DNA of 32,000 nt, taken from NCBI GenBank assembly GCA_937907055.1, contig CALCTW010000107.1, positions 4,985 to 36,984 of the forward strand, given 5' to 3'. Shown here one piece after another: positions 4,065 to 32,000 of this stretch (position 1 is the first letter of the stretch; each line of letters begins with the position of its first letter). Both the position numbers and the translations under genes were made by a program. The notes beneath the pieces are model-generated. The model searched no databases. It was not told where the DNA came from and saw nothing but the letters and a program-made list of their open reading frames with translations. The DNA is from an uncultured Clostridia bacterium (GTDB lineage: Bacteria; Bacillota; Clostridia; Christensenellales; Aristaeellaceae).

Positions 4065-4154
4065 GACGGCATCACGGTCCTTTCGTGAAATCGCCCTTTT
4101 CTCGCATTCCGCTTTATGGTATAATCCTTTCATCTGAGCATGGGAGGTACGCGT

Positions 4155-6479: not shown

Positions 6480-6494
6480 TCTCTTTATTCTTTC

Positions 6495-6520
6495 AGGCGG
6501 CACGCTGTGCTGCCTTTTTT
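6495..6520 (+). terminator. Intrinsic terminator after the GH95 gene
   Basis: AGGCGGCA (6495-6502) / TGCTGCCT (6508-6515) with one G-U pair, followed by a T-run. Confidence 0.75.
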
Positions 6521-6617
6521 GATACGAAGCTCAGGGCTCACCCGGATCTCTCTCCGTCATTTATATGATCAAAAGCGCGACAGGTTATGAAAATTTGCGT
6601 GTTTTTAGCAATTTCTA

Positions 6618-6646
6618 TTGAATGTAATCGTTTACGGTGCTATAAT
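6618..6646 (+). promoter_or_regulatory. Sigma-A type promoter of the GH5 gene
   Basis: TTGAAT (6618-6623), a 17-nt spacer, then TATAAT (6641-6646). Confidence 0.65.
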
Positions 6647-6682
6647 ACAATCATCAAACAACTTTTTGAAAGGATGCCAACG

Positions 6683-13348: not shown

Positions 13349-13358
13349 GATCCTCCTG

Positions 13359-15239
13359 TCAGGACAGCGCTTTCTTTTCCTTCTGCAGCATATACAGGCG
13401 ATAGTAACGTCCCTGCTGCTCCAGCAGCTGCACGTGCGTACCCTGTTCAATGATCTGTCCGTGAGAAAGCACGATGATGTTATCCGCGTGCTGCACAGTG
13501 GACAGGCGGTGCGCCACGATGAGCAGCGTGCCAATGTTCATCAGCTTTTCCAGACTGTCCTGGATCAGCACTTCGGTCTCGGTATCGATATTGGCGGTCG
13601 CTTCATCCAGGATCATGATCTCAGGCGCGTGGATCACGGTGCGGGCAAAGGAGAGCAGCTGGCGTTCACCGGCGCTGAAGTTGCTGCCGCGTTCACGCAC
13701 TTCCTCATCCAGCCCATGCTCCAGACGATTGATGATGCGGTCCGCGTTCACGTAATGCGCGGCCTTCATCACCTGTTCATCCGTCACATCCTCCATGCGC
13801 AGAATGATATTGCTGCGGATGGTGCCGCTGAACAGGAACACATCCTGCAGCATCTGGCCGAAATGACGGCGCAGAGAGGCGATCTTGATCCGGCGGATAT
13901 CGATGCCATCCACACGGATGGTGCCCTTCTGGATATCATAATTGCGGCACAGCAGGGAAAGGATGGTGGTCTTGCCGCTGCCGGTGGAACCGACAAAAGC
14001 GACCGTCTGCCCCGCCTCCACACGGAAGGAGACATCCTGCAGCACCCATTCACCGGGCTTGTAGGCAAACCATACATGATCGAACTCGATCTCGCCCTTC
14101 ACGTTCTCCAGCTCGATCGCGTCAGGCTCATCCACCACTTCGGGCTGCATATCAAAGATGGTGAAGATCTTTTCGGCGCTGGCAAAGGCGCTCTGCAGCC
14201 AGTTGAACTGTTCAGCCAGGTTCTGGATGGGGTTGAAGAACTTGTTGATGTACATGTAGAAGCTGACGATCGTGGAGGCCGGAACGAGGCCGATCAGGAA
14301 GGTATGATCCAGATAGCCCATCGCCGCCAGATAGAACAGGCACATGACGCTGGAGATATACAGCATATACACCAGCGGACGGAACACGCCGAAGACATAG
14401 ATCTGGCGGAACTTGGCCTTTTTCAGGCCCTGATTCTTGCTTTCAAACTCCTGCTGCTTGCGTTCTTCACGGTTGAAGATCTGGATGATCTTCATGCCGC
14501 TCAGGTTTTCGGAGAGGAAGGTATTGATATCCGTGGTGCCGTCCTTCACCTTGCGGAAAGCCTTGCGCAGGAACTTGCGGAAGATGACCGTGAAAAGAAT
14601 GATGAACGGAACGAAGCACAGGATCATCAGCGTGAGCTGGTAGTTCAGGATCAGCATCGCGGCCAGCACGCCGAAAACGATAAAGATGTTCTTGATCAGG
14701 TTGACCAGGATCTGTGTGAACATCAGGGAGATGGCGTTGGTATCGTTGGTCACACGGGTGACCAGCTTGCCCACAGGGATCTTGCTCAGCTGATCGTGGG
14801 ACAGGCTCTCGATATGATCGAACAGCTCCAGACGGATATTGGACAGGATCTTCTGACCGGTCTTCTGCAGAATGATCGCCTGACCGTAAGAAGAGATCAT
14901 GGAAACGATCAGCATACCGGCATAGATGCCCACATAGGTAAACAGCGTGGTAAGGGTGAAGGACTCGCTGACGACCACTTCCTCCACCTTGCCCACGATG
15001 ATGGGAGAAACGATATCATAGGCAATGGAGATGAGGATCAGCAGCAGCACCGCGACGAAATGCCACTTATAGGGCTTCGCGTAACGCAGAAGGCGCTTTG
15101 TGATCTCACTGTCCTTCATGTTGCGGTCAAAGCCGATGGCTTCTTTTTTATTTTTCATGCAGGCGTAGGCAATGATGAAAACAATGGAGAAGGCACCGAC
15201 TACACCGCCTACGAGCAGCAAAGGCAGATAACGTTCCAT
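13359..15239 (-). CDS. ABC transporter, fused permease/ATPase (type I exporter half-transporter)
   Basis: Six-TM N-terminal domain. Walker A is GSTGSGKTT, signature is FSAGERQLL, Walker B is MILDEAT. Start ATG 15239 follows the upstream TAA directly (TAAGATG). Confidence 0.85.
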   Translation of the reverse strand: MERYLPLLLVGGVVGAFSIVFIIAYACMKNKKEAIGFDRNMKDSEITKRLLRYAKPYKWHFVAVLLLILISIAYDIVSPIIVGKVEEVVVSESFTLTTLFTYVGIYAGMLIVSMISSYGQAIILQKTGQKILSNIRLELFDHIESLSHDQLSKIPVGKLVTRVTNDTNAISLMFTQILVNLIKNIFIVFGVLAAMLILNYQLTLMILCFVPFIILFTVIFRKFLRKAFRKVKDGTTDINTFLSENLSGMKIIQIFNREERKQQEFESKNQGLKKAKFRQIYVFGVFRPLVYMLYISSVMCLFYLAAMGYLDHTFLIGLVPASTIVSFYMYINKFFNPIQNLAEQFNWLQSAFASAEKIFTIFDMQPEVVDEPDAIELENVKGEIEFDHVWFAYKPGEWVLQDVSFRVEAGQTVAFVGSTGSGKTTILSLLCRNYDIQKGTIRVDGIDIRRIKIASLRRHFGQMLQDVFLFSGTIRSNIILRMEDVTDEQVMKAAHYVNADRIINRLEHGLDEEVRERGSNFSAGERQLLSFARTVIHAPEIMILDEATANIDTETEVLIQDSLEKLMNIGTLLIVAHRLSTVQHADNIIVLSHGQIIEQGTHVQLLEQQGRYYRLYMLQKEKKALS

Positions 15240-17356: not shown

Positions 17357-17447
17357 CATCATATTCCGTTTCTGTCTGATTCCGTTCTTATCCATGCGCC
17401 GATCCAAGTGCTTTTCTTCATGGATCCCATATCAGAAGGAGACCGTC

Positions 17448-18029
17448 ATGAACGCCTTAAAGAAGCAACAGTTGAAAACGCTGTTCCTTTCCACCTTCCG
17501 CCTCAGCGCCTGCACCTTCGGGGGCGGCTTTGTCATCATTCCGCTCATGAAAAAGCGGTTTGTGGATCAGCTGGGCTGGCTGGAAGAGCAGGAAATGCTG
17601 GATCTGACCGCCATCTCGCAGTCCGCGCCGGGGCCGATCGCCGTCAACGCCTCCATCCTGGTGGGCTATCGCATCGCGGGTGTCCCCGGCGCGCTGCTGT
17701 CCGTCCTCGGGTCGGTCCTGCCGCCGCTCATCATCATTACCGTCATCTCCGAGTTTTACCGCCAGTTCCGTGACGCGCCCATTGTCAATATGGCCATGGC
17801 CGGCATGCTGTGCGGTGTCGTCGCCGTGATCCTGGATGTGGTCATCAACATGATCCGCGCGCTGTTTAAGCAAAAACGTGTGCTCCCCTTCTTTGTACTG
17901 GTCTTCTCATTCATTGCCGCAAGGTATCTGAATATCAATATCATTCTCATCATCCTCATCTGCGGGTGCATCGGCGCGGCGGATGTTCTGCTCCGGCACG
18001 GACAGAAAAAGGAGGCAGATAAGCCATGA
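17448..18029 (+). CDS. Chromate transporter family protein (short-chain CHR, first half)
   Basis: MNALKKQQLKTLFLSTFRLSACTFGGGFVIIPLM.. is typical of ChrA/YwrB-like half proteins. RBS AAGGAG. The stop overlaps the next start (ATGA). Confidence 0.8.
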   Translation: MNALKKQQLKTLFLSTFRLSACTFGGGFVIIPLMKKRFVDQLGWLEEQEMLDLTAISQSAPGPIAVNASILVGYRIAGVPGALLSVLGSVLPPLIIITVISEFYRQFRDAPIVNMAMAGMLCGVVAVILDVVINMIRALFKQKRVLPFFVLVFSFIAARYLNINIILIILICGCIGAADVLLRHGQKKEADKP

Positions 18030-19228
18030 TCTATCTTGAGCTTCTCTGGTCCTTCCTGCAGATCGGTCTGTTCAGCATCGGCGGCGGCTACGCGGCCATG
18101 CCGCTCATCCAGACACAGGTCGTGGATCTGCATCCGTGGCTCACGATGTCGCAGTTTGCCGATATCATGACTGTCGCGGAAATGACCCCCGGTCCGATCG
18201 CCATCAATGCCGCCACCTTCGTGGGCATCCGCGTCGGGGGGATTCCGGGCGCGCTCATCGCCACCATCGGCTGTGTCATTCCCTCCTGCCTCATCGTCAT
18301 GCTGCTGGCCTTCATCTACTACCGGTTCCGCGGCCTTACGGTCGTCCGCGGCATACTGGCCGGGCTTCGTCCGGCTGTGATCGCCATGATCGCCTCCGCC
18401 GGCATCAGCCTGCTCATCACAGCGGTATGGGGACAGCGCTCACTGCCAAGCGATCTCACTTCCGCAGATCTGATCGCGGTCGGCATCTTCATCATCGCAT
18501 TTCTCCTGCTGCGCCTCCGCAAAACCAGCCCCATCGCTGTTATCTTCTTTTCCGGCCTGCTCGGTATCCTCTGCTATTCCGTCAGCCTGTATCCCGATGT
18601 GATTTTCCGTCCCGATCTTTTCCTGAAAGAAGACGATCATCTGCTCTTCACGATCCTTGCCCTTGTCATTCTGCTGCTGTTCTACGGCTGCTATTTCATA
18701 AAAATGTTCCTGCAGCGCAGACAGGGGGTCAGGACCGATCACCTCGGAAAAGGCAAGAAGGGCACGGAGCAGGTGATCGAGATCCTGCTCAAGATCACCT
18801 CTTATCTCCTGCCCGCGGCGGAGATCCTTTCCGTCATCCTGCATACCTCCATGCTCACCTTCCCCTTCCGTGCCGCGGGCGCGGCGCTGGGCGGCGCGGG
18901 TGCCGTGATCTTTATCATTTCTGTCTATACCATGAAGGATAACTGGCGCGCGGGCGTCAGTCCGGAGGAAAAAACCGATCTGGTCACCGGCGGCATCTTC
19001 CGCTTCAGCCGCAATCCCGCTTTCCTCGGTTTTGATCTGGTCTATATCGGCATCATGCTCCTGTTCAGCAACATACCCCTCATCATTCTCACACTCTTCA
19101 CCATTGTCATCTTCCATCTTCAGATCGTGAAGGTGGAGGAGCCCTTCCTTGAGAAGGCCTTCGGCGAACGTTATCAGGCTTACCGCAAAAAGACAGGGCG
19201 TTATCTGGGCAGAAGTCTTCGCAAGTGA
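18026..19228 (+). CDS. Chromate transporter half (about aa 1-185) fused to an ICMT/PEMT-like membrane methyltransferase domain (about aa 200-400)
   Basis: N-terminus LQIGLFSIGGGYAAMPLIQ..MTPGPIAINAATFVG is CHR family. C-terminus WRAGVSPEEKTDLVTGGIFRFSRNPAFLGFDLVYIG..VKVEEPFLEKAFGERYQAYRKKTGRYL matches the isoprenylcysteine carboxyl methyltransferase-like family signature. Confidence 0.7.
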   Translation: MIYLELLWSFLQIGLFSIGGGYAAMPLIQTQVVDLHPWLTMSQFADIMTVAEMTPGPIAINAATFVGIRVGGIPGALIATIGCVIPSCLIVMLLAFIYYRFRGLTVVRGILAGLRPAVIAMIASAGISLLITAVWGQRSLPSDLTSADLIAVGIFIIAFLLLRLRKTSPIAVIFFSGLLGILCYSVSLYPDVIFRPDLFLKEDDHLLFTILALVILLLFYGCYFIKMFLQRRQGVRTDHLGKGKKGTEQVIEILLKITSYLLPAAEILSVILHTSMLTFPFRAAGAALGGAGAVIFIISVYTMKDNWRAGVSPEEKTDLVTGGIFRFSRNPAFLGFDLVYIGIMLLFSNIPLIILTLFTIVIFHLQIVKVEEPFLEKAFGERYQAYRKKTGRYLGRSLRK

Positions 19229-19917: not shown

Positions 19918-21129
19918 TCAGTCGATATGCTCAAAAAAGTCATTCTTCGCTTCATCCGCGCCGACAGCGGTATACACCAGGCCGAAACGGTAGCAGCTGT
20001 AATCGCTCTCCCGCGGCTCTACCACAAACACCTCAAACACGCCCTGCGCGTTCTTCTGGCCGGCGTTCTGCTGGCTGATGTGATGGGTATACGCTTCCGC
20101 GGCCACCTCATAGCCGGTCTTTCCGCCGAAGGCCTGAAGGGGCTGATCCCAATCCATCTCGATGGGAGCCTCCGCGTACAGATGGCTGTACAGCTTCTTC
20201 ACCTGCCATGTACCGTATTCCGACACGGACTCGGTATACTTTTCCGGGTCCGCCGCGTATTCCACACAGCGCTTGAGCGCGTCCAGGCAGGCACGATGCG
20301 CGCCGTGGCCGTACTCGCCGTTCTGATCGTGGGTCAGCACCACATCCGGCTGATAGCGGCGAAGCAGCGCGGTGACATACTTCCATGTCGTTGTTTTGCC
20401 CCAGGCCTCATACGCCGTATCCAGCTTCTTGGAATACTTATCCCACATATCGCCGATATTGGGATACAACGTGACACCGCAGGCCCACAGGCCGTCCAGC
20501 AGCTCGCTGCGGCGTTCAAAGGTGTTGCAGGTCATATAACAGACCAGCACGTCCTTCCCCTGCTCCCCCGCGTAGGTGGGCAGCGCGCCGCCGAAGAACA
20601 GCAGCTCGTCATCCGGATGCGCGGCCAGCAGCAGCAGATCCACCTTCTCCGGCGCGTCCTGCCAGCGCTGCACCCAGGAGGGCACTTCTCCCTCGCCGAA
20701 CACATAGATCTCATTGACGGACAGCGTGGCGCTCTTCTTGCTGGTGCCGCACACGCGCACAGCCTCATAGCCGCGATCCAGCTCGATGAACTCATGCGCG
20801 TAGCGGGCGCTGTATTCGCCATACAGCTGCCAGTTCCCGTTCACACGCACCTTCAGCTCCCAGTCCGTCAGCTTATCCCAGAAGCACACATACACCCCAT
20901 GGATCTGTTCACCGCCTTTGGTGTCCAGTTCGATGTAGGTATTCTTGGCTTTGTCAGAGACCCAGTACGTCTTGTACTGACGGTCATACACACGGGTGAT
21001 CTTATATTTTCCGGCAGAGGAGCTGACCTTGCAGTCCGCTGTCAGATCCGCCGCTTCCTGCGCGAGCCCCAAAGCCGGCAGAAGCAGCAGCACCATCGCG
21101 GCCAGTGCCGCAGTGATCCATTTTTTCAT
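19918..21129 (-). CDS. Secreted PIG-L/LmbE-family deacetylase with N-terminal discoidin-like (F5/8 type C-like) domain
   Basis: Signal peptide MKKWITAALAAMVLLLLPALGLA. PIG-L motif is LLLAAHPDDELLFFGG, with a later HDQNGEYGHGAH. I trimmed the start from ORF-track 21297 to ATG 21129. Confidence 0.7.
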   Translation of the reverse strand: MKKWITAALAAMVLLLLPALGLAQEAADLTADCKVSSSAGKYKITRVYDRQYKTYWVSDKAKNTYIELDTKGGEQIHGVYVCFWDKLTDWELKVRVNGNWQLYGEYSARYAHEFIELDRGYEAVRVCGTSKKSATLSVNEIYVFGEGEVPSWVQRWQDAPEKVDLLLLAAHPDDELLFFGGALPTYAGEQGKDVLVCYMTCNTFERRSELLDGLWACGVTLYPNIGDMWDKYSKKLDTAYEAWGKTTTWKYVTALLRRYQPDVVLTHDQNGEYGHGAHRACLDALKRCVEYAADPEKYTESVSEYGTWQVKKLYSHLYAEAPIEMDWDQPLQAFGGKTGYEVAAEAYTHHISQQNAGQKNAQGVFEVFVVEPRESDYSCYRFGLVYTAVGADEAKNDFFEHID

Positions 21130-21142
21130 TACAGTGTCTTTC

Positions 21143-21865
21143 TCAGGCGTTCCTGCCCTGTCCCAGAATGCGCGCGGCAAGCTCCATATAGCCCTCCTGC
21201 ACATCTCCCAGGTCATGACGGTACAAATCCATGTCCAGTGTTTCGCGGGTGACCGCGTCCCAGAAGCGGCAGCTGGCAGGCGTGATCTCATCGGCAACGA
21301 TCAGGCTGCCGTCGGAGGTGAGGCCGAATTCCAGCTTCATATCCACCAGATCCACCTTGGCCTCCTTCAGGAACGCGCGCAGCACTTCATTCACCTTCAG
21401 TGCCAGCTGATGCGCCTGATCCAGCGTTTCCAGATCCACGATGCCCAGACCGGCCAGCTGACTGCGGTTGACCAGCGGATGTTCAAAGTCGCCCTGCTTC
21501 AGGCGGAACTCCACCACGGTGCTCTTCAGCGGCGTGCCCTTCATGATCCCGAAGCGCTCGCACAGATTGCCGGCGGCAAAATTGCGCACAACGATCGTGA
21601 CCGGCAGCACATCCACCTTCCGCACCAGCATATCCACATCGCTGATCTGCTTCAGATAATGCGTGGGGATCCCGTTTTCTTCAAGCAGTTCAAAGAAACG
21701 CGCGCAGATATCATTGTGGATCTTCCCCTTTCCGGGAATGATACCGCGCTTCAGGCCCTCAAACGCCGCTGCCTCATCAATAAAATGCACACAGCAGACG
21801 CCTTCCTGATCAGTCAGATATACCTTCTTGCTCTTGCCGGAAGTCAGCAGTCCTTTAAGCTCCAT
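21143..21865 (-). CDS. purC: Phosphoribosylaminoimidazole-succinocarboxamide (SAICAR) synthase
   Basis: 240 aa with motifs GKSKKVY, IPGKGKIHN, VVRNFAAGN, DMKLEFG and ADEITPASCRFWD. Confidence 0.9.
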   Translation of the reverse strand: MELKGLLTSGKSKKVYLTDQEGVCCVHFIDEAAAFEGLKRGIIPGKGKIHNDICARFFELLEENGIPTHYLKQISDVDMLVRKVDVLPVTIVVRNFAAGNLCERFGIMKGTPLKSTVVEFRLKQGDFEHPLVNRSQLAGLGIVDLETLDQAHQLALKVNEVLRAFLKEAKVDLVDMKLEFGLTSDGSLIVADEITPASCRFWDAVTRETLDMDLYRHDLGDVQEGYMELAARILGQGRNA

Positions 21866-22086: not shown

Positions 22087-24069
22087 TCAGGCTTCGTCTT
22101 CGCCGGGGATCACCATGTCGGCAACTTCCTCATCGGGAGCGCTCTGATCCGCCAGAGCTTCCTTCACGGAGAGGGTGATGCGCTTGGCTTCGGGATCCAC
22201 AGCCAGCACCTTGACGGTGACCATCTGACCGACAGTCAGAGCATCTTCCACCTTATCCACGTGGGTCAGAGCGCACTGGCTGATGTGGACCAGACCGTCG
22301 ACACCGGGCTCGAGAGCAACAAAGGCGCCGAATTCACGGATGCGGACGACCTTGCGCTCGATGATGCTGCCAACGGGGTACTTTTCTTCGATGTTATCCC
22401 AGGGCTTGGCCTGCAGATCCTTCAGGCTCAGCTGGATGCGCTCACGTTCACGATCCAGACCCTTCACCTTCACCTGCACTTCATCGCCGATCTTCAGCAC
22501 TTCTTCAGGCTTGTTCACGCGGTGCCAGGCCATATCGGTCACGTGGATCAGACCATCCACGCCGCCCAGGTCAACGAAAGCACCGAAGTCCGCGAAGCGG
22601 CGAACGATACCGGTAACAGTAGCGCCTTCCTCCAGCTTCTCCCACGCGGCAGCCTTCTTGGTGGCGTTTTCTTCAGCCACAACGACCTTGCGGGAAGCAA
22701 CGATGCGCTTTTTCTTTTCATCCACTTCGATGATCTTCAGCTTCATGGGCTGACCAACGAACTGGTCGATCTTTTCAACATAGCGCTGGGCCAGCTGAGA
22801 AGCGGGAACGAAGCAGCGGATGCCGCCGTCAACAGTAGCGATCAGGCCGCCCTTGACAGCTTCCTTACCGGTGGCTTCGATGTACTCGCCGGCCTGGTAC
22901 TTGGCCATGAGGTCTTCCCACACCTTCTTGTTGATGATGTTGCGCTGGCTGAGCAGAACGTTGCCTTCGCCGTCATTGACCTTGACGACTTCGACTTCGA
23001 TCGTGTCGCCGAGCTGCACGTCCTTGTCGACCAGATCTTCCTTCTTGATGATGCCATCAGCCTTATAGCCGATGTTGACGCAAACTTCGCTGTCGGTAAC
23101 CTGAACAACAGTGCCGGTCATTGTCTGACCATTGTGGATGCGGACCATGCTCGCTTCGATGTCAGCCATCAGCTGCTCTTCAAAACTGAGTTCCTCCTTA
23201 ACTTCCTGAGCCAGCTTCTCTTCCATGTCTGTCATGTGTGTAAAAACCTCCTTAAGTGACCAATCCGGTGTACTCGCACCGGCGGTTATTCCTAATAAAA
23301 TATTGTGGGTATCGATCAAGCGCGGCGGTATCTCCTCCGCGCGTTCCACCAGAATGGATTTGGGGCAGTTTTTGAGGCAGATGTCATAAAGCTTGCGCGT
23401 ATTGGCGCTCTGCCTGCCACCCACCACGATCATCGCCTGACAGCGCTTTGAAAGCTCCTCGGCTTCCTTCTGCCGCAGCGCCGTCGCGTTGCAGATGGTG
23501 TCCTTCACCGTCAGATCCGGGAAGCGTGCCGTCAGCGTGTCGCGGACAGATGTCCACAGCGCTCTTGAAAAAGTGGTCTGGCACACCAGCAGGGCATTTT
23601 GCATTTCCGGCAGCGCCTCGGCCTCCTCCACGGAGCCGATCCGCCAACACCGTCCCTTGCGGCACCAGCCGGCTGTAGCCACCACCTCGGGATGTCCTTC
23701 ATCCCCCACCAGGATCACGCTGTTCCCCTGCTCCGTATGCGCCCGCACCAGATCGTGCAGATGCTTGACGGAGGGACAGGTGCAATCGATGACACGCAGC
23801 CCGCGCGCGGCAGCCTTTTCATAGGTTTCCGGCGGTTCTCCGTGAGAGCGAAGGATCAGATATCCTGCCTCCGCCTCCTCAACGCTGTTCACCTGCCGTA
23901 TGCCGCGCGAACGCAGTTTTTTCAAGGCCTCATTGTTATGGATGAGCTCCCCCAGCGTACAGATCGGCATGCCTTCCGCCTGCGCGGTGCTGCCTGCTGC
24001 CAGCGCCAGATCCATCGCGCGCCTCACACCGTTGCAGAACCCGGCATGATCCGCAAGAATAACGGGCAT
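22087..24069 (-). CDS. ispH: Bifunctional 4-hydroxy-3-methylbut-2-enyl diphosphate reductase (IspH/LytB) fused to ribosomal protein S1 (four S1 domains)
   Basis: The N-terminus MPVILADHAGFCNGVRRA..LGELIHNN.. is IspH. From about aa 300 there are four repeats of the S1 OB-fold pattern (G.V..V....V.V..G..G.I). The ORF-track start is 24078 (GTG). The ATGs at 24075 and 24069 are also possible. Confidence 0.85.
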   Translation of the reverse strand: MPVILADHAGFCNGVRRAMDLALAAGSTAQAEGMPICTLGELIHNNEALKKLRSRGIRQVNSVEEAEAGYLILRSHGEPPETYEKAAARGLRVIDCTCPSVKHLHDLVRAHTEQGNSVILVGDEGHPEVVATAGWCRKGRCWRIGSVEEAEALPEMQNALLVCQTTFSRALWTSVRDTLTARFPDLTVKDTICNATALRQKEAEELSKRCQAMIVVGGRQSANTRKLYDICLKNCPKSILVERAEEIPPRLIDTHNILLGITAGASTPDWSLKEVFTHMTDMEEKLAQEVKEELSFEEQLMADIEASMVRIHNGQTMTGTVVQVTDSEVCVNIGYKADGIIKKEDLVDKDVQLGDTIEVEVVKVNDGEGNVLLSQRNIINKKVWEDLMAKYQAGEYIEATGKEAVKGGLIATVDGGIRCFVPASQLAQRYVEKIDQFVGQPMKLKIIEVDEKKKRIVASRKVVVAEENATKKAAAWEKLEEGATVTGIVRRFADFGAFVDLGGVDGLIHVTDMAWHRVNKPEEVLKIGDEVQVKVKGLDRERERIQLSLKDLQAKPWDNIEEKYPVGSIIERKVVRIREFGAFVALEPGVDGLVHISQCALTHVDKVEDALTVGQMVTVKVLAVDPEAKRITLSVKEALADQSAPDEEVADMVIPGEDEA

Positions 24070-24103
24070 TCTCATCACATCCTAAACAGGGCAATACTAC
24101 AAC

Positions 24104-24851: not shown

Positions 24852-25521
24852 TGCGCTTTTCCTCCACAAGACGGATGATCCTCTCGACAGATTCATCAAA
24901 GGTGTTCTCTGTCGTATCCACCACCACGGCGTCCTCCGCCACGCGGAGCGGATCGGCTTCTCGGTGCATATCCTGCCAGTCGCGGGCGTTGACTTCCTTC
25001 AGGATCTCTTCAAAGGGAATGTCCTCCCCCTTGGCCAGCAGCTGGTCTCTTCTGCGCTGCGCGCGGGCCTCGGCGGAAGCCGTCAGATAGATCTTGATCT
25101 TCGCGTTCGGCAGCACCACGGTGCAGATATCACGGCCGTCGATCAGGATATCCTGCTTGGTCGCGATCAGCTGCTGCTGCGCCACCAGCATCCTGCGCAC
25201 CTCTTTATAGCGGGACACGGTGCTGGCATAACCGCCGATCTCCTGCTCGCGGATCTTCGCGGAGACATCCGCTCCGTTCAGCAGCGTCACCTGTCTGCCG
25301 TCCCGGTAGGCCACATCCACCTCGGCCTTTCCTTCCGCGCACAGGGCGCACACTTTTTCCTCATCCTGCGGATCGATGCCGTTCAGCCGGACCGCGAGGC
25401 CAACCGCGCGGTACATCGCGCCGGTATCCAGATGGATGATATCCAGTTTTCCGGCGACCGCGTCACAGATGGTGGATTTTCCGGCGCCCACAGGGCCGTC
25501 CACCGCAATGGTAAGAGGCAT
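24844..25521 (-). CDS. cmk: Cytidylate kinase
   Basis: 225 aa. N-terminus MPLTIAVDGPVGAGKSTI (P-loop), then HLDTGAMYR and DGRDICTVV. Confidence 0.9.
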   Translation of the reverse strand: MPLTIAVDGPVGAGKSTICDAVAGKLDIIHLDTGAMYRAVGLAVRLNGIDPQDEEKVCALCAEGKAEVDVAYRDGRQVTLLNGADVSAKIREQEIGGYASTVSRYKEVRRMLVAQQQLIATKQDILIDGRDICTVVLPNAKIKIYLTASAEARAQRRRDQLLAKGEDIPFEEILKEVNARDWQDMHREADPLRVAEDAVVVDTTENTFDESVERIIRLVEEKRNA

Positions 25522-25562
25522 GTTCGTTTCCTCCGTCAGTTTTGTTCCGGCCCTGCCGTTGA

Positions 25563-26270
25563 TCAGGCGTCCTTACCCTCAAAGCGGCGGCACAGACAAT
25601 ATTTGCTCACTGCCTGCTGCACGGGTTCCGGGCAGGCAAAGGAGCACAGCTCCGCGATATAGGGCGGAAGCACACGGTTATACTTGATCTCCAGGATCAT
25701 CAGATCCTCATTATCCAGCGGGCTGATGGTCGGCACGGCAGGATTGAAGATATCGATGCTGTTCAGACCGCTGCGCAGCTGCATATCAAAGGTGATACGC
25801 ACCTCCTCCGCCGGATGCACATAGGCCTCGCGCAGATAGTCCACCAGCACCACAGGATGCAGCAGCTTGGTGCGCATCTCCTTGTACACATCGCGCAGCA
25901 GACCGTAGCGGGTGTTCTCCAGCCCGCTCGGATCCCCGGCGATCAGCTGATCCGCCAGGTCACGCGGGATCTTCAGGGAACGCTTGGAGATGAAGCTGCC
26001 GTACTTGGTCTTGCACTCCATGAAGATCTCCTTGGAGGAATAATTATAGATGCGCATACGGTACTTATCACGATCCTGGACACCGTCGATCTTATCATAC
26101 AGCGCGTCATCAAACACCGTATCGAAATAGAGGGAACGGATATGATAGTGTCCCCCGTTGCGCACGGCGTTCGCGTCCAGGTTCAGCACGCCCTTGAGAG
26201 AGCGGGACAGCACCTCATACTGCGTACGGCTGATCAGATATTTGTTTTCATGTCGAAGCGCTAAAGCCAT
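25563..26270 (-). CDS. VTC domain protein (polyphosphate polymerase-like, triphosphate tunnel fold)
   Basis: 235 aa. Strand motifs RHENKYLI, HIRSLYFD, KYRMRIYN, MECKTKYG, RITFD and LEIKYN match bacterial stand-alone VTC-domain proteins as I remember them. RBS AAAGGAG. Confidence 0.7.
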   Translation of the reverse strand: MALALRHENKYLISRTQYEVLSRSLKGVLNLDANAVRNGGHYHIRSLYFDTVFDDALYDKIDGVQDRDKYRMRIYNYSSKEIFMECKTKYGSFISKRSLKIPRDLADQLIAGDPSGLENTRYGLLRDVYKEMRTKLLHPVVLVDYLREAYVHPAEEVRITFDMQLRSGLNSIDIFNPAVPTISPLDNEDLMILEIKYNRVLPPYIAELCSFACPEPVQQAVSKYCLCRRFEGKDA

Positions 26271-26291
26271 CGCTTTGCTCCTTTATCAGGG

Positions 26292-27026
26292 TCAGGCGCC
26301 CTGTTCGGTCTGGCAGGCGACCAGCGTGGCGTCATGCACGCCGGGGATCTCCAGCATACGGGCCACGAGGGTGGTGTGCTGCGCCAGGCGGACTTCCACA
26401 GTCATTTCCACACCGTTGCGGGTCATGGTCTGGGAACGCATACGATGACGGGGCGCGATGGAATTCAGCTGACTTTCGATGGCAGGCTCGGCCACTTCAT
26501 CATAGTGCAGCACCAGCAGATAGCTGGAACCATTGGAGAACTTGACATAGTGCAGACCGACGACCACCGCGCACATGCACAGCACAACGATCAGCGCGAT
26601 CAGATAGTATTCAGCGCCCAGCAGGATGCCCATGGTGATGGACCAGAACATGTACACGGTATCCAGCGGATCCTTGACCGCGGTACGGAAACGCACGATG
26701 GACAGCGCGCCGACCATACCCATGGAAAGCGCCACATTGCTGCCGATGGCCATCACGACAGGCGCGGTCACGATGCAAAGCAGGATCAGTGTCATGGAGA
26801 AATTGGGGCTGTACAGCACACCGCGATAGGTCTTGCGGTACACGAAGGCGATCAGCAGACCGACGACCAACGCGGACAGGATGACTGCCACCGCGCTCAG
26901 GGGGCTGAAGTTGGCGAACTGCTGCGCGATCCAGCCCTGGAAGCCGGGCGCGGAGGGAGCGGAAGAGGAAGCGGCGGTGCCGGCAGCGGACGCGGCGGGG
27001 AAAATCGTTTCGATCAGTTCATTCAT
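26292..27026 (-). CDS. DUF4956-family integral membrane protein
   Basis: 244 aa with about four TM segments. The motif GALSIVRFRTAVKDPLDTVYMFWSI is characteristic of DUF4956. A soluble C-terminal tail of about 75 aa follows. RBS GGAGG. Confidence 0.7.
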   Translation of the reverse strand: MNELIETIFPAASAAGTAASSSAPSAPGFQGWIAQQFANFSPLSAVAVILSALVVGLLIAFVYRKTYRGVLYSPNFSMTLILLCIVTAPVVMAIGSNVALSMGMVGALSIVRFRTAVKDPLDTVYMFWSITMGILLGAEYYLIALIVVLCMCAVVVGLHYVKFSNGSSYLLVLHYDEVAEPAIESQLNSIAPRHRMRSQTMTRNGVEMTVEVRLAQHTTLVARMLEIPGVHDATLVACQTEQGA

Positions 27027-27113
27027 GGTTCATAACCTCCGGTGAATTTTCATTTTTTATCGTGCGAGGAAGCCGTGCGGCTCCTGTGATCAGGGGGTGA
27101 GGATCCGTCTGGA

Positions 27114-30100
27114 TCAATCCGCCGGCTTGGGCGGGCAGGGAGAACCGAAGTAGTATTCCATCTGCGCGTTGGACAGACCGAATTGTTTCTGGAACAGGGT
27201 GTAGATGTAATAGGGGCGTTTGTTGATAACATTCTGCAAACGACGGATACGGGTGTTCCAGTAACGGAGCAGACCATCGGCGGAGGAGGGAGAGTCACTG
27301 TTGACCAGCTTGGTCTCCTGCGTCCATTTGACCGCCCACAGCTTGAAGTGCCATTCCATTTCGGGCTCGATCAGCCGGTACAGTTCATCCAGCGTAGTCA
27401 TCATACGGTCGACAGTCAGGTTCTTATAGATGTTGCCGATCTTGGTGTAGAACAGCTCCTGATACTCCGGTACCTCCAGGATCTTGCGGAAGATGACATT
27501 GTTGATCTTCTGCTGACCCATGCCCTCCGGCTTCATGTAGGACCAGGGCGAATCGAAGGCGCTGTTGAACATGCCGTAGTCAAGGTCGAACAGCAGACAC
27601 TTCCATTTGGCGCCCGGGGTGGGCAGCCTGTAGAAGAGGATGTTACCGGGGTCGCTGTTGCCAAAGAACATTTCGATGGCGAACCAGTCCAGATAATTGT
27701 CGATGTCCACGTTCGCGTCCAGATAGGCGCGGTCCGAGGCATTGGTGCCGGGGTTCATGGTCTTGAGCGTGTTCACCATGGCGCGCCATTCGGTGTTGGT
27801 GCCCTGCACCACAGAACCGCTGGCGCGAAGGATGGTGATATCATCCACCTTCTCCAGATCCAGCCCTTCGTGCTGCGCGATACAGTAGCGGTCCTTGCGC
27901 TCACGCATGTTGTAATGGCCGTAGAACGCGCCGTTCAGATACACCACGGTGGGCTGCCAGGCCAGAGAGATGATATTCGTATCCACATAGCGCTCCACCA
28001 GCACGGTCTGGAAGCCGTCCACAAGGCGGGTCCACACACAGTCGTTGCCGGAGTTGCGCAGGGTGAAGCTCTTGTAGAAGCTGTAATCGCGCGGCGTCAG
28101 CGCGTCCTCAAACAGCGGATACTCAAAATACTTGTGACCGCTGCTGGCCTGCGCGCGGATCTTGAAGGACTTCTGCGGCATATCCAGCGAGTAGTCGCCC
28201 AGCAGCGACACCTTCACGCCCTGGCTGATGACGGCGGTCTTATCGCCGCTCTGCTCAAAGACCTCCACATAGCCGGGCCGCGCGATCTTGCCGAATTCGC
28301 GGTAGACCGTGTGCTTGAACGGCAGCTTGCCCGGCTCCTTCACGGCATCAGGACCGTCCGCCAGCATACCGGTGTTCTGATTCCACAGTTCATAGGGATC
28401 CACCACCAGCGAGACCACCCTTACCGTGTGATAGGTGTTCATAATGTAGGTAGCGGTGATGGGATCGGAGGCCTGCAGGCCGGTACGGTACGCCCTCGCC
28501 CGCAGCACCAGATTGTTCTGGATCAGGAACGGGGCGGTATAGACCTCGCTGTTTTCCAGCGTGGGGACGGAGCCGTCCGTGGTATAGCGCACGGTCGTTC
28601 CCTCCGGCACATTGATGCCGACGATGACCTCGCCGGTGTACAGACCGCTCTCAAGCGTGAAGGAAGGAGCCTGGGCATAGCCGACAAAACCGTCTCTGTT
28701 CGCCGCGCCGGGCGTGGCCGTACTATAATAAAAAAAACCGGCAGCGCCTTCGGTGCGCCCGTAGGACACGTCCGTCGGGAGCGCGGGGATGTAGATCCTG
28801 TCCAGCACATTGCCCTGCGGATCGGAAAGTGTCATCATTTCACCGCCTGCCCTTGAAAGAGCGAAAGACGCGTGCAGCTGCGACGCGTCTGTACCGGCGG
28901 ATGCGCTCTTATCCAGCAGCACCACTTTATATTCACCCGGCCAGATCTGCGTTCCCTGCGGGAACTGCCATTTTCGCGGCCAGTTGACATTATCACTCAG
29001 ACCCCACCCGGACAGATCCACCACGGCATCCGTCGGGTTATGGATCTCCACCCAGTCACAGGCAGCCAGCCCGCTGATCGCCTGGGTCTTATCCGCGCCG
29101 CTCATCAGCTCTGTGATGATGACGCGGGTCTTGTTGTTGGCCCGCATCACCTCGTCCGCCTTGGCAATGCCGGCAGAGGTGTTGGGCAGGGTGGGCGTCG
29201 GCATGGTGAAGATCTTCCACTGCAGCGTGTCATAATCGCGGCCGTAACTGACGTCCTTGCCCATGGTCTCGTAGGTGACCTGATCTACCAGCTCACCCGT
29301 GAGGGTGGAAAGGGTAATGGTCTCGCCGTCCGCGCGCAGGCTGAAGTTGGTGTGGGCGAAGTAGGTGCCCTCCTCCACCTTGTTCTTGCCGGAAGCAAAG
29401 ACCAGATAATAACCGTTCGCGGGGATGACCGCGTTTTCGGGGAAGGACCACTTGACGCGCTTGGCGGGATCATCGCTCAGCGCGTAATTTGCCAGGCTGA
29501 TCGGACGATCGGAAAGATTGCGGATCTCGATCCAGTCGCTCAGATCCCCGTCCGCGTCGGGCAGCAGATTGGCCCGGGGCGCGGCGCAGACCTCATTGAT
29601 GACCAGGCTGCTCACATCCACACGGAAGCTTTCAAGGAAAGCGGCGTGTCCGTCAAAGGTATTGGGGAAAAGCGGAGAATAATCATCCGTAACGGAGTAG
29701 GTATCCTCCGGGATGCCGTTCGCGGGATCGGCCAAAGTGAGGATGTAGCTTTCATCTTCATTTAAGATGGGCACATCCACATGCTCAAGCTCACGTCCGG
29801 AACTGTCAAACAGGAAGACCGAGCAGCCCATGGAGGAAAGATTGAACTTGGCATGGAAAACATCGCCCGCCTCACTGCGGTTGACATTATCGCAGAAGAC
29901 GATCACGCGGCCGCCGGCAGGCAGCACATAATCCGGGAAGAAAAACTTAAGACGGTCGCTGCGGTTGGAAAGGCCGGTATTCTGCAGGTTCATGTCGTGA
30001 TCCGTGGTGTTCCACAGCTCCACCCAGTCCACAAATTTGCCCTCTTCATTGGGATACGCGCCGGAATTGGAGGTCATGATCTCGCTGATGCGAAGACCGG

Positions 30101-30272
30101 CGTGATCACCGTCGCCGCCTGCCGCGTTATAGGCCACATTGGCCGGCAGACAGCCGAGACCGCTGATGGCGCTCAGCGCGGCCACCGCGGCGATCAGCGC
30201 GACGACAAGCAGAACAAACGCCACGCCGACGGATGTCTGTTTATGATATTCCCTTCGGGACATTCTATCCAT
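27114..30272 (-). CDS. Membrane-anchored extracytoplasmic CotH-family (atypical kinase) protein with three lamin-tail domains and a chitobiase/hexosaminidase-C-like Ig domain
   Basis: N-terminal signal-anchor VGVAFVLLVVALIAAVAALSAI. Three LTD repeats: LRISEIM..DWVELWN, LVINEV..DWIEIRN and VIITELM..DWVEIHN. Next comes TVRYTTDGSVPT, then the CotH region YSLDMPQKSFKIRA..FTLRNSGND..NYLDWFAIEMFFGNSDPGN. Confidence 0.75.
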   Translation of the reverse strand: MDRMSRREYHKQTSVGVAFVLLVVALIAAVAALSAISGLGCLPANVAYNAAGGDGDHAGLRISEIMTSNSGAYPNEEGKFVDWVELWNTTDHDMNLQNTGLSNRSDRLKFFFPDYVLPAGGRVIVFCDNVNRSEAGDVFHAKFNLSSMGCSVFLFDSSGRELEHVDVPILNEDESYILTLADPANGIPEDTYSVTDDYSPLFPNTFDGHAAFLESFRVDVSSLVINEVCAAPRANLLPDADGDLSDWIEIRNLSDRPISLANYALSDDPAKRVKWSFPENAVIPANGYYLVFASGKNKVEEGTYFAHTNFSLRADGETITLSTLTGELVDQVTYETMGKDVSYGRDYDTLQWKIFTMPTPTLPNTSAGIAKADEVMRANNKTRVIITELMSGADKTQAISGLAACDWVEIHNPTDAVVDLSGWGLSDNVNWPRKWQFPQGTQIWPGEYKVVLLDKSASAGTDASQLHASFALSRAGGEMMTLSDPQGNVLDRIYIPALPTDVSYGRTEGAAGFFYYSTATPGAANRDGFVGYAQAPSFTLESGLYTGEVIVGINVPEGTTVRYTTDGSVPTLENSEVYTAPFLIQNNLVLRARAYRTGLQASDPITATYIMNTYHTVRVVSLVVDPYELWNQNTGMLADGPDAVKEPGKLPFKHTVYREFGKIARPGYVEVFEQSGDKTAVISQGVKVSLLGDYSLDMPQKSFKIRAQASSGHKYFEYPLFEDALTPRDYSFYKSFTLRNSGNDCVWTRLVDGFQTVLVERYVDTNIISLAWQPTVVYLNGAFYGHYNMRERKDRYCIAQHEGLDLEKVDDITILRASGSVVQGTNTEWRAMVNTLKTMNPGTNASDRAYLDANVDIDNYLDWFAIEMFFGNSDPGNILFYRLPTPGAKWKCLLFDLDYGMFNSAFDSPWSYMKPEGMGQQKINNVIFRKILEVPEYQELFYTKIGNIYKNLTVDRMMTTLDELYRLIEPEMEWHFKLWAVKWTQETKLVNSDSPSSADGLLRYWNTRIRRLQNVINKRPYYIYTLFQKQFGLSNAQMEYYFGSPCPPKPAD

Positions 30273-30301
30273 ATATGAATACTCCTGAAATGTTGTTAAA
30301 A

Positions 30302-30334
30302 CAGGTACCGCACAAGTACCTGATCATTATAACA
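30302..30334 (-). promoter_or_regulatory. CotH operon promoter (extended -10) with a 7-bp inverted repeat at the expected transcription start
   Basis: Minus strand reads TGTTATAAT (30334-30326). CAGGTAC-N7-GTACCTG lies at 30322-30302, immediately downstream. Confidence 0.45.
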
Positions 30335-30472
30335 CAAAATACCGCCCAATAAAAGTGCTTCCGTTCGCATTTTCTTGTAAAATCGCCACATAAATATGAA
30401 TAAATGAAGTCAGAAAAACGGCATCCGCGCGCCCGCGGCGGATCAATGCCACATTTTGATCCGTTTTTCCCC

Positions 30473-30501
30473 TGTACAAGCCCACGACCCTTTGATATAA
30501 T
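30473..30501 (+). promoter_or_regulatory. Promoter of the 170-aa membrane protein gene (extended -10)
   Basis: TGTACA (30473-30478), a 17-nt spacer ending in TG, then TATAAT (30496-30501). Confidence 0.5.
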
Positions 30502-30538
30502 GAGATCATGAAAAACGATTCTGAAGGAGTGACGATCG

Positions 30539-31051
30539 TTGTTATATACAGAAAATGATCTGCAGGCTGTAACCGCGCAGATGAAAAAACGCCGTGCCGT
30601 GCTGCTCGCGGTGCTGGGGATCGCCCTGGTGCTGATGGTGCTCAACTATGTCGTGCTTCGCCTGCCTGTCCGCGCGGACATCAAGAGCGGCCACCAGAAT
30701 GATTATCTTTATCTTTATTATGTCATTGCCCTCGCGGCGCTTTTCTTCTCCATCTTCTGGACAGATCTGTTCATGCGCCCGGTCAAGGCCTATCAGAGGC
30801 TGCTCGCGCACGCGCTGCACGGCCGCACCCGTCAGTATGAATACACCTATCGGGATCGCGAGAGCGAGACCGTGATGCGGGACGCTGTCAAACTGGTGCC
30901 GCTCACGATGACCGAGGGCGATCCCAAGGATGAGAAAAACGAAAGACTGCTTTATTACGATGCTCTGCTTCCCTTCCCGGACTGGCAGACCGGCGAGACC
31001 TTGCGCCTCATCACGCATGATAAAGTCATCGTCGGCTGGGAACGGACTTAA
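30539..31051 (+). CDS. Hypothetical membrane protein (two TM segments), TTG start
   Basis: RBS GAAGGAG lies 9 nt before TTG 30539. TM segments are AVLLAVLGIALVLMVLNYVVL and YVIALAALFFSIFWTDLF. Stop is TAA. Confidence 0.55.
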   Translation: MLYTENDLQAVTAQMKKRRAVLLAVLGIALVLMVLNYVVLRLPVRADIKSGHQNDYLYLYYVIALAALFFSIFWTDLFMRPVKAYQRLLAHALHGRTRQYEYTYRDRESETVMRDAVKLVPLTMTEGDPKDEKNERLLYYDALLPFPDWQTGETLRLITHDKVIVGWERT

Positions 31052-31084
31052 AAAACATCGAACAGCACAGGAGGATGATCCCAT

Positions 31085-32000
31085 GGAGAATCAACCGAAT
31101 ATCGTGATTCTGAAGGAACAGCTGGCCGAACTGCAGCAGAAAATGAGCGCGTACAATCACGCGCTGAGCCTGCTCAGCTTTGACGGCGCCACCATCGCGC
31201 CTCGCGGCACCACATCAAACCGCGCGCGTACGCTGGGCGTGCTGAGCGGCGAAAGCTATAAGCTTTCCACCGGTGAAGAAACCATCGCCCTTCTCGAGGC
31301 GCTGGATGATCGCAGGGATGAACTGACCGCCCGTGAGCAGCGCCAGGTGGAAATGCTGCTCAAGGATATCCGCCGGATGCAGAAGATCCCCTTTGACGAG
31401 TATGTCGCCTATCAGGAGCTGCTCGCCGAGGCGGATGACATCTGGCATACCGCCAAGGAAAACAGTGATTTCGCGCTGTTTGAGCCCTATCTTGAAAAGA
31501 TCGTGGCCACCGTGCGCCGGATCGCGCAGCTGTGCGCGCCGGAGAAGGATCCCTATGATTACTGGCTGAACGAATACGAAGAAGGCCTTTCCGCCGAAAA
31601 GTGCGACGCCTTCTTTGCCACCGTGCGTGCCCGTCTGGTGCCGCTTCTGAAAAAGGTGGCGTCTGTTCCTCAGGTGGATGACGCCTGTGTGAAGGGCGCC
31701 TTCACCGATCAGCAGCAGGAGGCGTTCTCCCGCTTCCTGATGGAGCAGATGGGGCTGGACATGGATCATGTGACCCTCGCGACCACCGAACATCCCTTCA
31801 CCACCTCCCTGGGCTCTCATCTGGATGAGCGCATCACCACCCATTATATCTCCGAGGATCTTTCCTCCTCCATGTTCTCCGTCATCCATGAGGGCGGTCA
31901 TGCCCTGTATGACACCGGCAGCGACGACGAACTGGCCTACACCGTGCTGGACGGCGGCGTGAGCATGTCCATCCACGAGAGCCAGAGCCGTTTTTATGAG
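31085..32000 (+). CDS. Carboxypeptidase, M32 family (Taq-like metallocarboxypeptidase), 3'-truncated by the window edge
   Basis: I translated this by hand; it is absent from the ORF track because no stop lies in the window. RBS AGGAGG precedes it. The product is MENQPNIVILKEQLAELQQKM..EHPFTTS..VIHEGGHALYD (HEXXH)..IHESQSRFYE. Confidence 0.8.

Follow-up and report, generated by a model that had tools for sequence, protein, structure and literature searches.

A conserved VTC–DUF4956 gene pair with an exported CotH partner as a candidate membrane-docked polyphosphate synthase in Clostridia

In bacteria, PPK1 and PPK2 are generally taken as the route to polyphosphate. A recent review (PMC10657179) surveys Vtc4, the polymerase of the yeast VTC complex, across eukaryotes only and traces it back to their first common ancestor. 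An accessory set of polyphosphate polymerase, cotH, DUF4956, and DUF4832 genes is contiguous with pelDEADAFG in streptococci, in some clostridia, and in bifidobacteria (Whitfield et al. 2020, PMC7112168). A 2024 preprint on Streptococcus intermedius models the CotH, VTC-like, and DUF4956 proteins, suggests that, for want of the other VTC subunits, the polyphosphate remains in the cytoplasm, and reports no occurrence of the trio beyond pel operons (bioRxiv 10.1101/2024.04.20.589940). In the NELoc-2 locus of Clostridium perfringens, two pairs of a VTC gene and a gene for a membrane protein of about 225 amino acids (aa) lie beside CotH (Lepp et al. 2010, PMC2879425), and in vivo the expression of the VTC gene CP4_0460 changes jointly with that of CP4_0461, its adjoining membrane partner (PMC4983038). 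The partners in this locus (CP4_0460–CP4_0465) are annotated as 'tubulin/FtsZ GTPase' (PMC2879425); judging from their size, location, and gene order, they are probably misannotated DUF4956 proteins. The present analysis concerns a cotH–DUF4956–VTC trio of about 4.7 kilobases (kb), all on the minus strand, in a 32,000-nucleotide (nt) stretch of an uncultured Clostridia bacterium (GenBank assembly GCA_937907055.1, contig CALCTW010000107.1), which is called the window below.

The trio is already known as a published but unexplained gene set, and no published function was found for it, as the preliminary description of this DNA had stated. What is new is the invariant VTC–DUF4956 core, its independence from pel, the conservation of catalytic residues on both enzymes, and a universal division of the three products between cytoplasm, membrane, and cell exterior. 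These features are consistent with VTC and DUF4956 forming a membrane-docked polyphosphate synthase that would feed an extracytoplasmic CotH protein carrying lamin-tail domains (LTDs), a reading to which a probability of roughly 0.45 is assigned.

Conservation of the gene set

A pattern scan with the VTC alignment, using one genome per species, matched at least 597 species, of which the best 80 loci (80 species) were analyzed; they are ranked by similarity to a Clostridial query and come mostly from Bacillota. Neighboring genes were detected with iterated domain models, those for CotH and LTD being derived from domain envelopes, and doubtful cases were checked with Pfam. Most loci belong to Clostridia, where the trio is strongly co-conserved, in agreement with the preliminary description; Bacilli and some further phyla are represented as well. 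Among the carriers are Cytobacillus, Lysinibacillus, Paenibacillus, and Desulfosporosinus, together with metagenome-assembled genomes that bear the labels Sphaerochaetaceae, Udaeobacter, Sulfurovum, and Bathyarchaeia. Gut and rumen samples are the source of the closest named relatives, which are uncultured Oscillospiraceae and further Clostridia. Bacteroidota, named as carriers in the preliminary description, are absent from these best 80 loci, a set ranked by likeness to the Clostridial query.

In 78 of the 80 loci, DUF4956 and VTC are immediate neighbors with a common orientation, and the remaining two end near a contig edge. The gap between the two genes has a median of 13 nt and is at most 30 nt in 58 of the 78 cases. 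CotH is present in 68 loci (85%), and its position varies. The most frequent order is cotH–VTC–DUF4956 (32 loci, 3 more with an extra cotH copy, and 2 cut after VTC), followed by the arrangement of the window and its closest relatives, cotH–DUF4956–VTC (23 loci), and by VTC–DUF4956–cotH in Paenibacillus and others (8 loci), while the VTC–DUF4956 pair stands alone in 12. Since the adjacency of VTC and DUF4956 is kept through three gene orders, it survives rearrangement, and this linkage is far beyond chance. The co-conservation of the three genes proposed in the preliminary description is strong; with CotH absent in 12 of the 80 loci, the invariant core consists of VTC and DUF4956, and CotH or an LTD-only protein is its usual extracytoplasmic partner.

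The predicted topology of the products is equally constant. Hydrophobic segments are missing from each of the 80 VTC proteins, whereas the 78 DUF4956 proteins are without exception membrane proteins. Where the N-terminus of a CotH open reading frame (ORF) of the other species is complete (64/64), it carries an export signal, either a hydrophobic segment or a lipoprotein signal. On these predictions, the split between cytoplasm, membrane, and exterior is universal in the 80 species, and hydropathy agrees with the earlier assignment of the window proteins as a soluble VTC, a polytopic DUF4956, and a signal-anchored CotH.

Seven loci encode a secreted protein composed of LTDs alone, either in addition to the other genes or as a substitute. 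These ORFs encode two LTDs in 358–450 aa; in six loci they form a fourth gene after DUF4956 (L036:11439-12725, L037:2948-4195, L038:4803-6155, L041:11498-12649, L043:8877-9998, and L053:7069-8190), while in L048 (8365-9441) such a protein replaces CotH. Pfam confirmed the domain composition of five of the six (L037 excepted) and of the L048 protein. Because LTD-only genes follow DUF4956 or take the place of CotH, the LTD itself seems to be linked with whatever VTC and DUF4956 produce.

Beyond these partners, the surroundings differ by lineage. The 109 same-strand flanking ORFs of the 80 loci represent 118 different Pfam families (SNF2 helicases, transfer RNA methyltransferases, MatE, and gyrase among them), none of which recurs in more than seven, and further conserved neighbors were thereby ruled out. 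The gene divergent from cotH in the window (170 aa) was not found beside the trio in other species.

The published linkage to pel raises the question of whether the module is a dedicated accessory of Pel biosynthesis, present in the window as a relic or acting on a distant pel operon. The contiguity of the trio with pelDEADAFG (PMC7112168) and the failure of the S. intermedius preprint to find it elsewhere agree with such a role, as do the seven loci with pelF or pelG within 10 kb, all of them distant relatives of the window gene. The other 73 loci, including the window, have neither gene nearby and are flanked by variable housekeeping genes, and no pel gene is present in the window or within 10 kb on either side on the 86-kb source contig. 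Moreover, S. intermedius knockouts keep Pel, and two plasmids carry the trio in glycan clusters other than pel: in Pseudobutyrivibrio it lies inside an exopolysaccharide cluster, and in Planococcus there is a VTC–DUF4956–CotH–HEAT–glycosyltransferase set. A dedicated Pel function is thus very unlikely. As the flanks vary by lineage and pelF or pelG accompanies just 7 of 80 loci, the module is autonomous of pel and has been repeatedly recruited to cell-surface polymer loci; since only two plasmid records contain the VTC gene, it is not mainly plasmid-borne. On the source contig, beyond the end of the window (L001:1516-3456), a GGDEF diguanylate cyclase with a periplasmic-binding-protein sensor is encoded about 2.5 kb upstream of cotH on the opposite strand. 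Pel systems are regulated by cyclic di-GMP, and the proximity of this gene to cotH may be a coincidence.

Properties of the VTC, DUF4956, and CotH proteins

The window VTC protein matches Pfam PF09359 with E=2.8e-39 (135.5 bits, cut-off 23; model 2-230 of 235) and has a maximum 19-residue Kyte-Doolittle score of 0.68. A phmmer search against 1.84 billion representatives of 50% identity clusters returned 4523 clusters at E<=1e-3, a count that possibly includes eukaryotic Vtc proteins, and 257 at E<=1e-30. An alignment of 48 diverse bacterial members (34–79% identical to the window protein) contains 22 invariant columns, among them E8, K10, R71, R73, E85, K87, K96, Y145, R147, R158, E194, K196, and K223, with S222 nearly invariant (>=90%). 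The profile of these 48 proteins matches Vtc4 (PDB ID: 3g3q) with E=3.1e-11 and the catalytically inactive Vtc2 with 1e-5. In the profile alignment to 3g3q and 5iiq, K10 corresponds to Vtc4 K200, R71/R73 to R264/R266, K87 to K281, K96 to K294, Y145/R147 to Y359/R361, and R158 to R373, up to which the alignment is significant. A weaker second segment pairs E194/K196 with E426/K428 and S222/K223 with S457/K458, at lower confidence. K200 reportedly distinguishes active Vtc4 from inactive Vtc2 and Vtc3, as Hothorn et al. are said to have found in 2009. The R264A/R266A/E426N variant of Vtc4 is catalytically dead and was used as such in cryo-electron microscopy (PMC9911596).

The AlphaFold2 model of the VTC protein (predicted local distance difference test, pLDDT, 76.8) points in the same direction. 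Its best Foldseek match is Vtc4 (3g3r; E=4.8e-12, TM-score 0.66–0.68), the values for 3g3r and 3g3q ranging from 5e-12 to 1e-11, and the next-best folds are the triphosphate-tunnel enzymes ygiF (5.7e-7) and AtTTM3 (1.2e-5). Without polymerase function, the protein would be a triphosphatase of the tunnel type, or a different triphosphate-tunnel enzyme with tripolyphosphate or a nucleotide as its substrate, and would belong to a signaling or regulatory module with DUF4956 and CotH. This reading has the next-best folds in its favor, together with the functional diversity of triphosphate-tunnel enzymes (PMC4641920). Bacterial VTC proteins also retain E8 of the ExExK metal motif (as RHExK), where Vtc4 has a threonine, and the site is therefore compatible with that of a hydrolase. 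Such a function is nonetheless doubtful, given that the profile and fold matches favor Vtc4 by about five orders of magnitude (for the fold, over ygiF) and that the K200-equivalent lysine and the polymer-binding basic residues of the tunnel are invariant. Judged by its well-supported fold and residues, the window protein looks like an active Vtc4-type polyphosphate polymerase, although its activity is deduced; the papers searched contain no enzyme assay of any bacterial VTC protein.

Many of the VTC proteins closest to that of the window (41–48% identity) carry an N-terminal extension of about 140–400 aa, for a total of 365–620 aa. Examples are the cluster representatives P0126, P0130, P0134, P0139, P0141, P0146, P0155, and P0192, none of which has a Pfam match beyond the VTC domain, and the ORFs L048:9539-10684 and L065:3238-4458. 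In P0126, P0130, P0141, and P0155 the extension is of low complexity, basic, and rich in K, R, P, E, and A. The extension is not a fused DUF4956 domain; it could bind polyphosphate or the membrane, or serve as an acceptor.

The DUF4956 protein (Pfam E=4.5e-12) is polytopic by hydropathy. In its AlphaFold2 model (mean pLDDT 78.8), a five-helix membrane domain (helices 42-66, 74-94, 97-115, 120-137, and 141-162) is followed by an ACT-like domain with β-α-β-β-α-β topology. A Foldseek search of the PDB matched only the latter, to ACT domains and to the C-terminal domain of Pseudomonas aeruginosa MgtC (7qa5), with probability 1.0 and E-values of just 0.01–0.07. Likewise, the protein scores 20.4 bits against the MgtC family (PF02308; E=7e-4), which is below the gathering cut-off of 31.4. 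The library searched includes 7ytj and 8i6v, yet the fold search retrieved no Vtc chain, and the sequence profile had no match to solved structures (best E=0.5). Neither the Vtc channel nor any solved transporter is thus detectably similar to the membrane domain. The preliminary description had suggested that DUF4956 could take the channel role of the Vtc transmembrane subunits, which these comparisons do not support: on sequence and model, the protein looks MgtC-like rather than Vtc-channel-like.

In 78 homologs sharing 31–64% identity, conservation is 90% or higher over the core LSxGMVGALSIVRFRTxxKxPxD..FW..GI..G. When the positive-inside rule is applied to the model, R112, R114, K118, the loop YRKTYRG, and the ACT-like domain would face the cytoplasm, and this basic face is where a cytoplasmic polymerase would dock. 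In the yeast Vtc channel, basic residues line the cytoplasmic entrance (PMC9911596); the invariant Arg, Arg, and Lys of DUF4956 would lie at the equivalent face. Hypothetically, DUF4956 might itself act as a channel.

The CotH protein begins with R/K residues and a hydrophobic segment, and the remainder is accordingly predicted to be extracytoplasmic. Three LTDs follow, with motif starts ISEI, INEV, and ITEL at residues 62, 225, and 386; Pfam gives coordinates for the third alone (379-493), and the outer limits of the group are approximate. The four domain calls of the preliminary description (VTC, DUF4956, CotH, and LTD) all hold in Pfam, which adds an Fn3_assoc/CHB_HEX_C_1 β-sandwich between the LTDs and the kinase-like domain. 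Bacterial LTDs accompany extracellular phosphoesterases and nucleases (PMC6085458), and one may speculate that they bind polyanions.

The kinase-like domain scores 112 bits against PF08757 (cut-off 23.8). It contains the QKSFK lysine motif (residue 700), which is part of the CotH family consensus, D874 in GNSD (27651-27653), and D896 in FDLD (27585-27587). A single-sequence search against solved structures retrieved nothing, and a family profile was needed: built from 48 CotH domains of related loci, it matches Bacillus cereus CotH (5jd9) with E=7.4e-38 over 342 positions. D874 and D896 align to the aspartates of NFD and WDYD in 5jd9 and are at least 90% conserved in the 48 domains. The Bacillus subtilis CotH mutants D228Q and D251A are inactive (PMC7821199). 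Provided that the B. cereus and B. subtilis numbering is matched correctly, D874 and D896 would be the equivalents of the catalytic D228 and the metal-binding D251, and the domain looks catalytically competent.

CotH being the spore-coat kinase of B. subtilis (PMC7821199) and many carriers being Clostridia or Bacilli, a sporulation function might be considered, in which CotH phosphorylates spore-coat proteins and the other two genes aid spore assembly. However, the N-terminal signal-anchor and extracellular-type domains of the window protein differ from the localization of spore-coat CotH kinases, an export signal is present in all 64 relatives as well, the trio is carried by non-sporulating streptococci and bifidobacteria too, and no sporulation genes flank it. 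Such a function is highly improbable.

Possible mechanism and significance

In the proposed scheme, the cytoplasmic VTC enzyme would add the γ-phosphate of adenosine triphosphate (ATP) to a growing polyphosphate chain inside its basic β-barrel tunnel. The polymerase would be docked on DUF4956, a partnership strongly supported by genomics in which physical contact is presumed, with the ACT-like domain serving as a docking site or as a ligand sensor, like the SPX domain in yeast. A DUF4956 oligomer might then pass the nascent chain across the membrane, or hold synthesis there, as a non-homologous analog of the Vtc1/3/4 channel. In the most tentative step, the anchored CotH protein with its three LTDs may capture the polymer outside the cell and either use it as a phosphate donor or attach it to surface proteins or glycans. 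We infer polyphosphate export and its use by CotH as a phosphate donor; export is suggested because three gene orders and several phyla preserve the combination of a soluble cytoplasmic enzyme with a membrane protein dedicated to it and an enzyme that leaves the cell. A stronger form of the scheme, a bacterial make-and-export machine in which the polymer is threaded through a DUF4956 oligomer and fuels an extracellular CotH kinase acting on surface proteins or glycans, is unlikely.

Several observations weigh against a membrane-docked synthase feeding CotH. The VTC and DUF4956 models are of only moderate confidence (pLDDT 77–79), the HMMER segment that aligns E194/K196 and S222/K223 to Vtc4 is non-significant by itself, and the retained E8 departs from Vtc4. 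The DUF4956 membrane domain does not resemble the Vtc channel, and MgtC, its nearest relative, is known as a regulator and not as a channel. Twelve of the 80 loci have no CotH within 10 kb. A DUF4956–VTC fusion, sought as a sign of direct contact, was not found, as the DUF4956 and CotH models match nothing in 270 VTC-family proteins. To our knowledge, no protein-kinase-like enzyme uses polyphosphate as a donor. Finally, single deletions of the trio genes in S. intermedius leave Pel and aggregation essentially intact (bioRxiv 10.1101/2024.04.20.589940).

Part of this evidence fits an intracellular process better. In a somewhat unlikely alternative, the synthase is tethered to the membrane and polyphosphate stays in the cytoplasm, as the authors of the S. 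intermedius preprint proposed; DUF4956 would be an MgtC-like anchor or regulator whose ACT-like domain ties synthesis to membrane energetics or phosphate status, and CotH a co-regulated, ATP-dependent secreted kinase. The MgtC resemblance (the sub-threshold Pfam match, the ACT-like domain, and the match to 7qa5), the lack of similarity to the Vtc channel, and the loci devoid of CotH are all in keeping with it. It leaves unaccounted for the exported CotH of 85% of loci, kept in three gene orders, and the exported LTD-only protein of others. A soluble polymerase would also need no dedicated polytopic partner, yet one is found in 78 of 80 species, and little ATP would be available to an exported kinase, ATP being scarce outside the cell. 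The docked synthase that feeds an extracytoplasmic partner is accordingly the reading retained. In the interpretation of the preliminary description, the domains, topology, and linkage stand, and the channel role of DUF4956 is hypothetical.

A VTC enzyme with a membrane partner points to a second, membrane-located bacterial route to polyphosphate, and the large bacterial VTC family bears on the origin of the eukaryotic enzyme. If the polymer is exported, the module would provide a mechanism and a genetic basis for the polyphosphate that bacteria secrete or display on their surface and that affects host defense (PMC7423913, PMC10653871). Being anionic, exported polymer could also pair with Pel or other cationic polymers of the matrix. 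Extracellular kinases could draw their phosphate from it, which would explain how a kinase works where ATP is scarce. The module is found in the necrotic-enteritis locus of C. perfringens and is common in gut and rumen Clostridia, and its small size (three genes) makes it directly testable by heterologous expression.

Layout of the locus and comparison with known systems

The three genes are consecutive in the ORF list, which bears out the spacing of 87 and 21 nt given in the preliminary description (Table 1). Each is preceded by its own ribosome-binding site (RBS), that of cotH being AGGAG about 8 nt 5' of the ATG. As had also been described, no terminator separates the trio genes: the scan found none in either spacer, and its sole match within the unit is inside the cotH coding sequence. 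Over the whole region, 8 terminator-like matches were observed against 7.3 expected from shuffles, and promoter matches are likewise at the level of shuffled sequence. The cmk gene follows VTC on the same strand after 41 nt without a terminator-like site in between, so that a transcript of the trio may run on into cmk and further into plsC and an ispH–rpsA fusion.

Table 1. Coordinates of the trio genes, spacers, and protein features in the window
Feature	Position	Strand	Basis or remark
cotH-family gene, 1052 aa	27114..30272	-	ORF and Pfam; same gene called on source contig
DUF4956 membrane protein gene, 244 aa	26292..27026	-	ORF and Pfam
VTC-domain gene (Vtc4-type triphosphate tunnel), 235 aa, soluble	25563..26270	-	ORF and Pfam
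cotH–DUF4956 spacer, 87 nt, GGAGG RBS, no terminator-like site	27027..27113	-	Sequence and terminator scan
DUF4956–VTC spacer, 21 nt, AAGGAG RBS	26271..26291	-	Sequence; median gap elsewhere 13 nt (78 species)
CotH: N-terminal hydrophobic segment, residues ~15-37, signal-anchor or signal peptide	30162..30230	-	Hydropathy peak 3.06
CotH: three LTDs, residues ~55-493, outer limits approximate	28794..30110	-	Pfam E=1.2e-49
CotH: Fn3_assoc/CHB_HEX_C_1 β-sandwich, residues 541-609	28446..28652	-	Pfam E=1e-12, 1.9e-12
CotH: kinase-like catalytic domain, residues 692-1022	27207..28199	-	Pfam E=5.3e-32
DUF4956: predicted five-helix membrane domain, residues 42-162	26541..26903	-	AlphaFold2, hydropathy, conservation
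DUF4956: conserved core LSxGMVGALSIVRFRTxxKxPxD, residues 100-123	26658-26729	-	Conservation
DUF4956: ACT-like domain (β-α-β-β-α-β), residues 168-237, predicted cytoplasmic	26316..26525	-	AlphaFold2, Foldseek

On the other side, a 265-nt spacer separates cotH from a divergent ORF of 170 aa (30539-31051, +) with one hydrophobic segment and no Pfam match, beyond which lies an M32 carboxypeptidase gene. Rfam gave no match at E up to 1 in 25000-31200, upstream of and between the trio genes; the PADLOC anti-phage models match neither the trio proteins nor the 170-aa neighbor, and no NCBIfam model matches any of the three trio proteins. The window lies on a metagenome contig of 86 kb (ENA ERZ27247138) with identical public gene calls, and the same protein is also present in NCBI assembly GCA_045628485.1.

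Elsewhere in the window, 3' of cmk and plsC on the trio strand, an ORF of 663 aa (22087-24078, -) encodes IspH/LytB fused to four S1 RNA-binding domains. Adjoining purC is an ORF of 459 aa (19918-21297, -), called on the source contig with 403 aa, in which a PIG-L GlcNAc-deacetylase domain is confined to residues 222-343 and the N-terminal half is without a family match. Split chromate-transporter genes are present at 18026-19228 (+) and 17394-18029 (+), the second half of the transporter being fused to a membrane methyltransferase of PEMT/ICMT type. Genes for GH95, a GH5 cellulase, and GH43 with CBM6 (4140-8476, +, and 11852-13534, -) act in plant-polysaccharide degradation and fit a fiber-degrading host among gut or rumen Clostridia.

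Compared with the described systems, the locus shares most of its parts with one or another of them. The Gram-positive pel set (SIR_1592-1594 in S. intermedius) consists of the same secreted CotH-like protein, cytoplasmic VTC-like protein, and membrane protein of 4–5 helices with an ACT domain, whereas the window has no pel operon within reach, the order cotH–DUF4956–VTC, no DUF4832 glycosidase, and a CotH protein of double the length that carries three LTDs where the pel-associated one has an FN3 tail. In NELoc-2, each VTC gene is likewise followed by its membrane-protein gene beside CotH, an arrangement matched by the Planococcus plasmid. NELoc-2 differs in that it is a mobile island, on which two VTC/membrane pairs are accompanied by genes for a resolvase, a sigma factor, and a glycosyltransferase of chitin-synthase-like type. 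Spore CotH (5JD9, 5JDA) has the same kinase-like domain, with the equivalents of D228 and D251 kept in the window protein, but is about 360 aa long, lacks a signal sequence, and resides in the mother cell, where ATP is present, while the window protein of 1052 aa is exported or anchored and has LTD and Fn3-associated domains. With MgtC/SapB/YhiD, DUF4956 would share, by its model, about five membrane helices and a cytoplasmic ACT-like domain, and one source names a DUF4956 homolog 'YhiD'; it stays below the Pfam threshold of that family, and its motif GALSIVRFRTxxKxPxD is its own. We know of no MgtC protein that pairs with a polymerase. PPK1 and PPK2 have the presumed product in common with the VTC enzyme, polyphosphate made from a nucleoside triphosphate, but their folds are unrelated to VTC and they have no dedicated membrane partner.

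The yeast VTC complex (3G3Q, 7YTJ, 8I6V) is compared last. No SPX or DUF202/Vtc1-type domain was detected by Pfam in the window trio, either fused or nearby; the partner is instead encoded separately, is unrelated to the Vtc subunits, and looks like MgtC with its predicted ACT-like domain, and an exported CotH is added. The presumed target is the cell exterior rather than the vacuole, and E8 is retained at the position of the Vtc4 threonine. What the two have in common is the Pfam family of the catalytic domain, which is also the best fold match, the tunnel and catalytic residues, and the obligatory pairing of a cytoplasmic polymerase with a polytopic membrane protein that presents a basic face to the cytoplasm (predicted for DUF4956).

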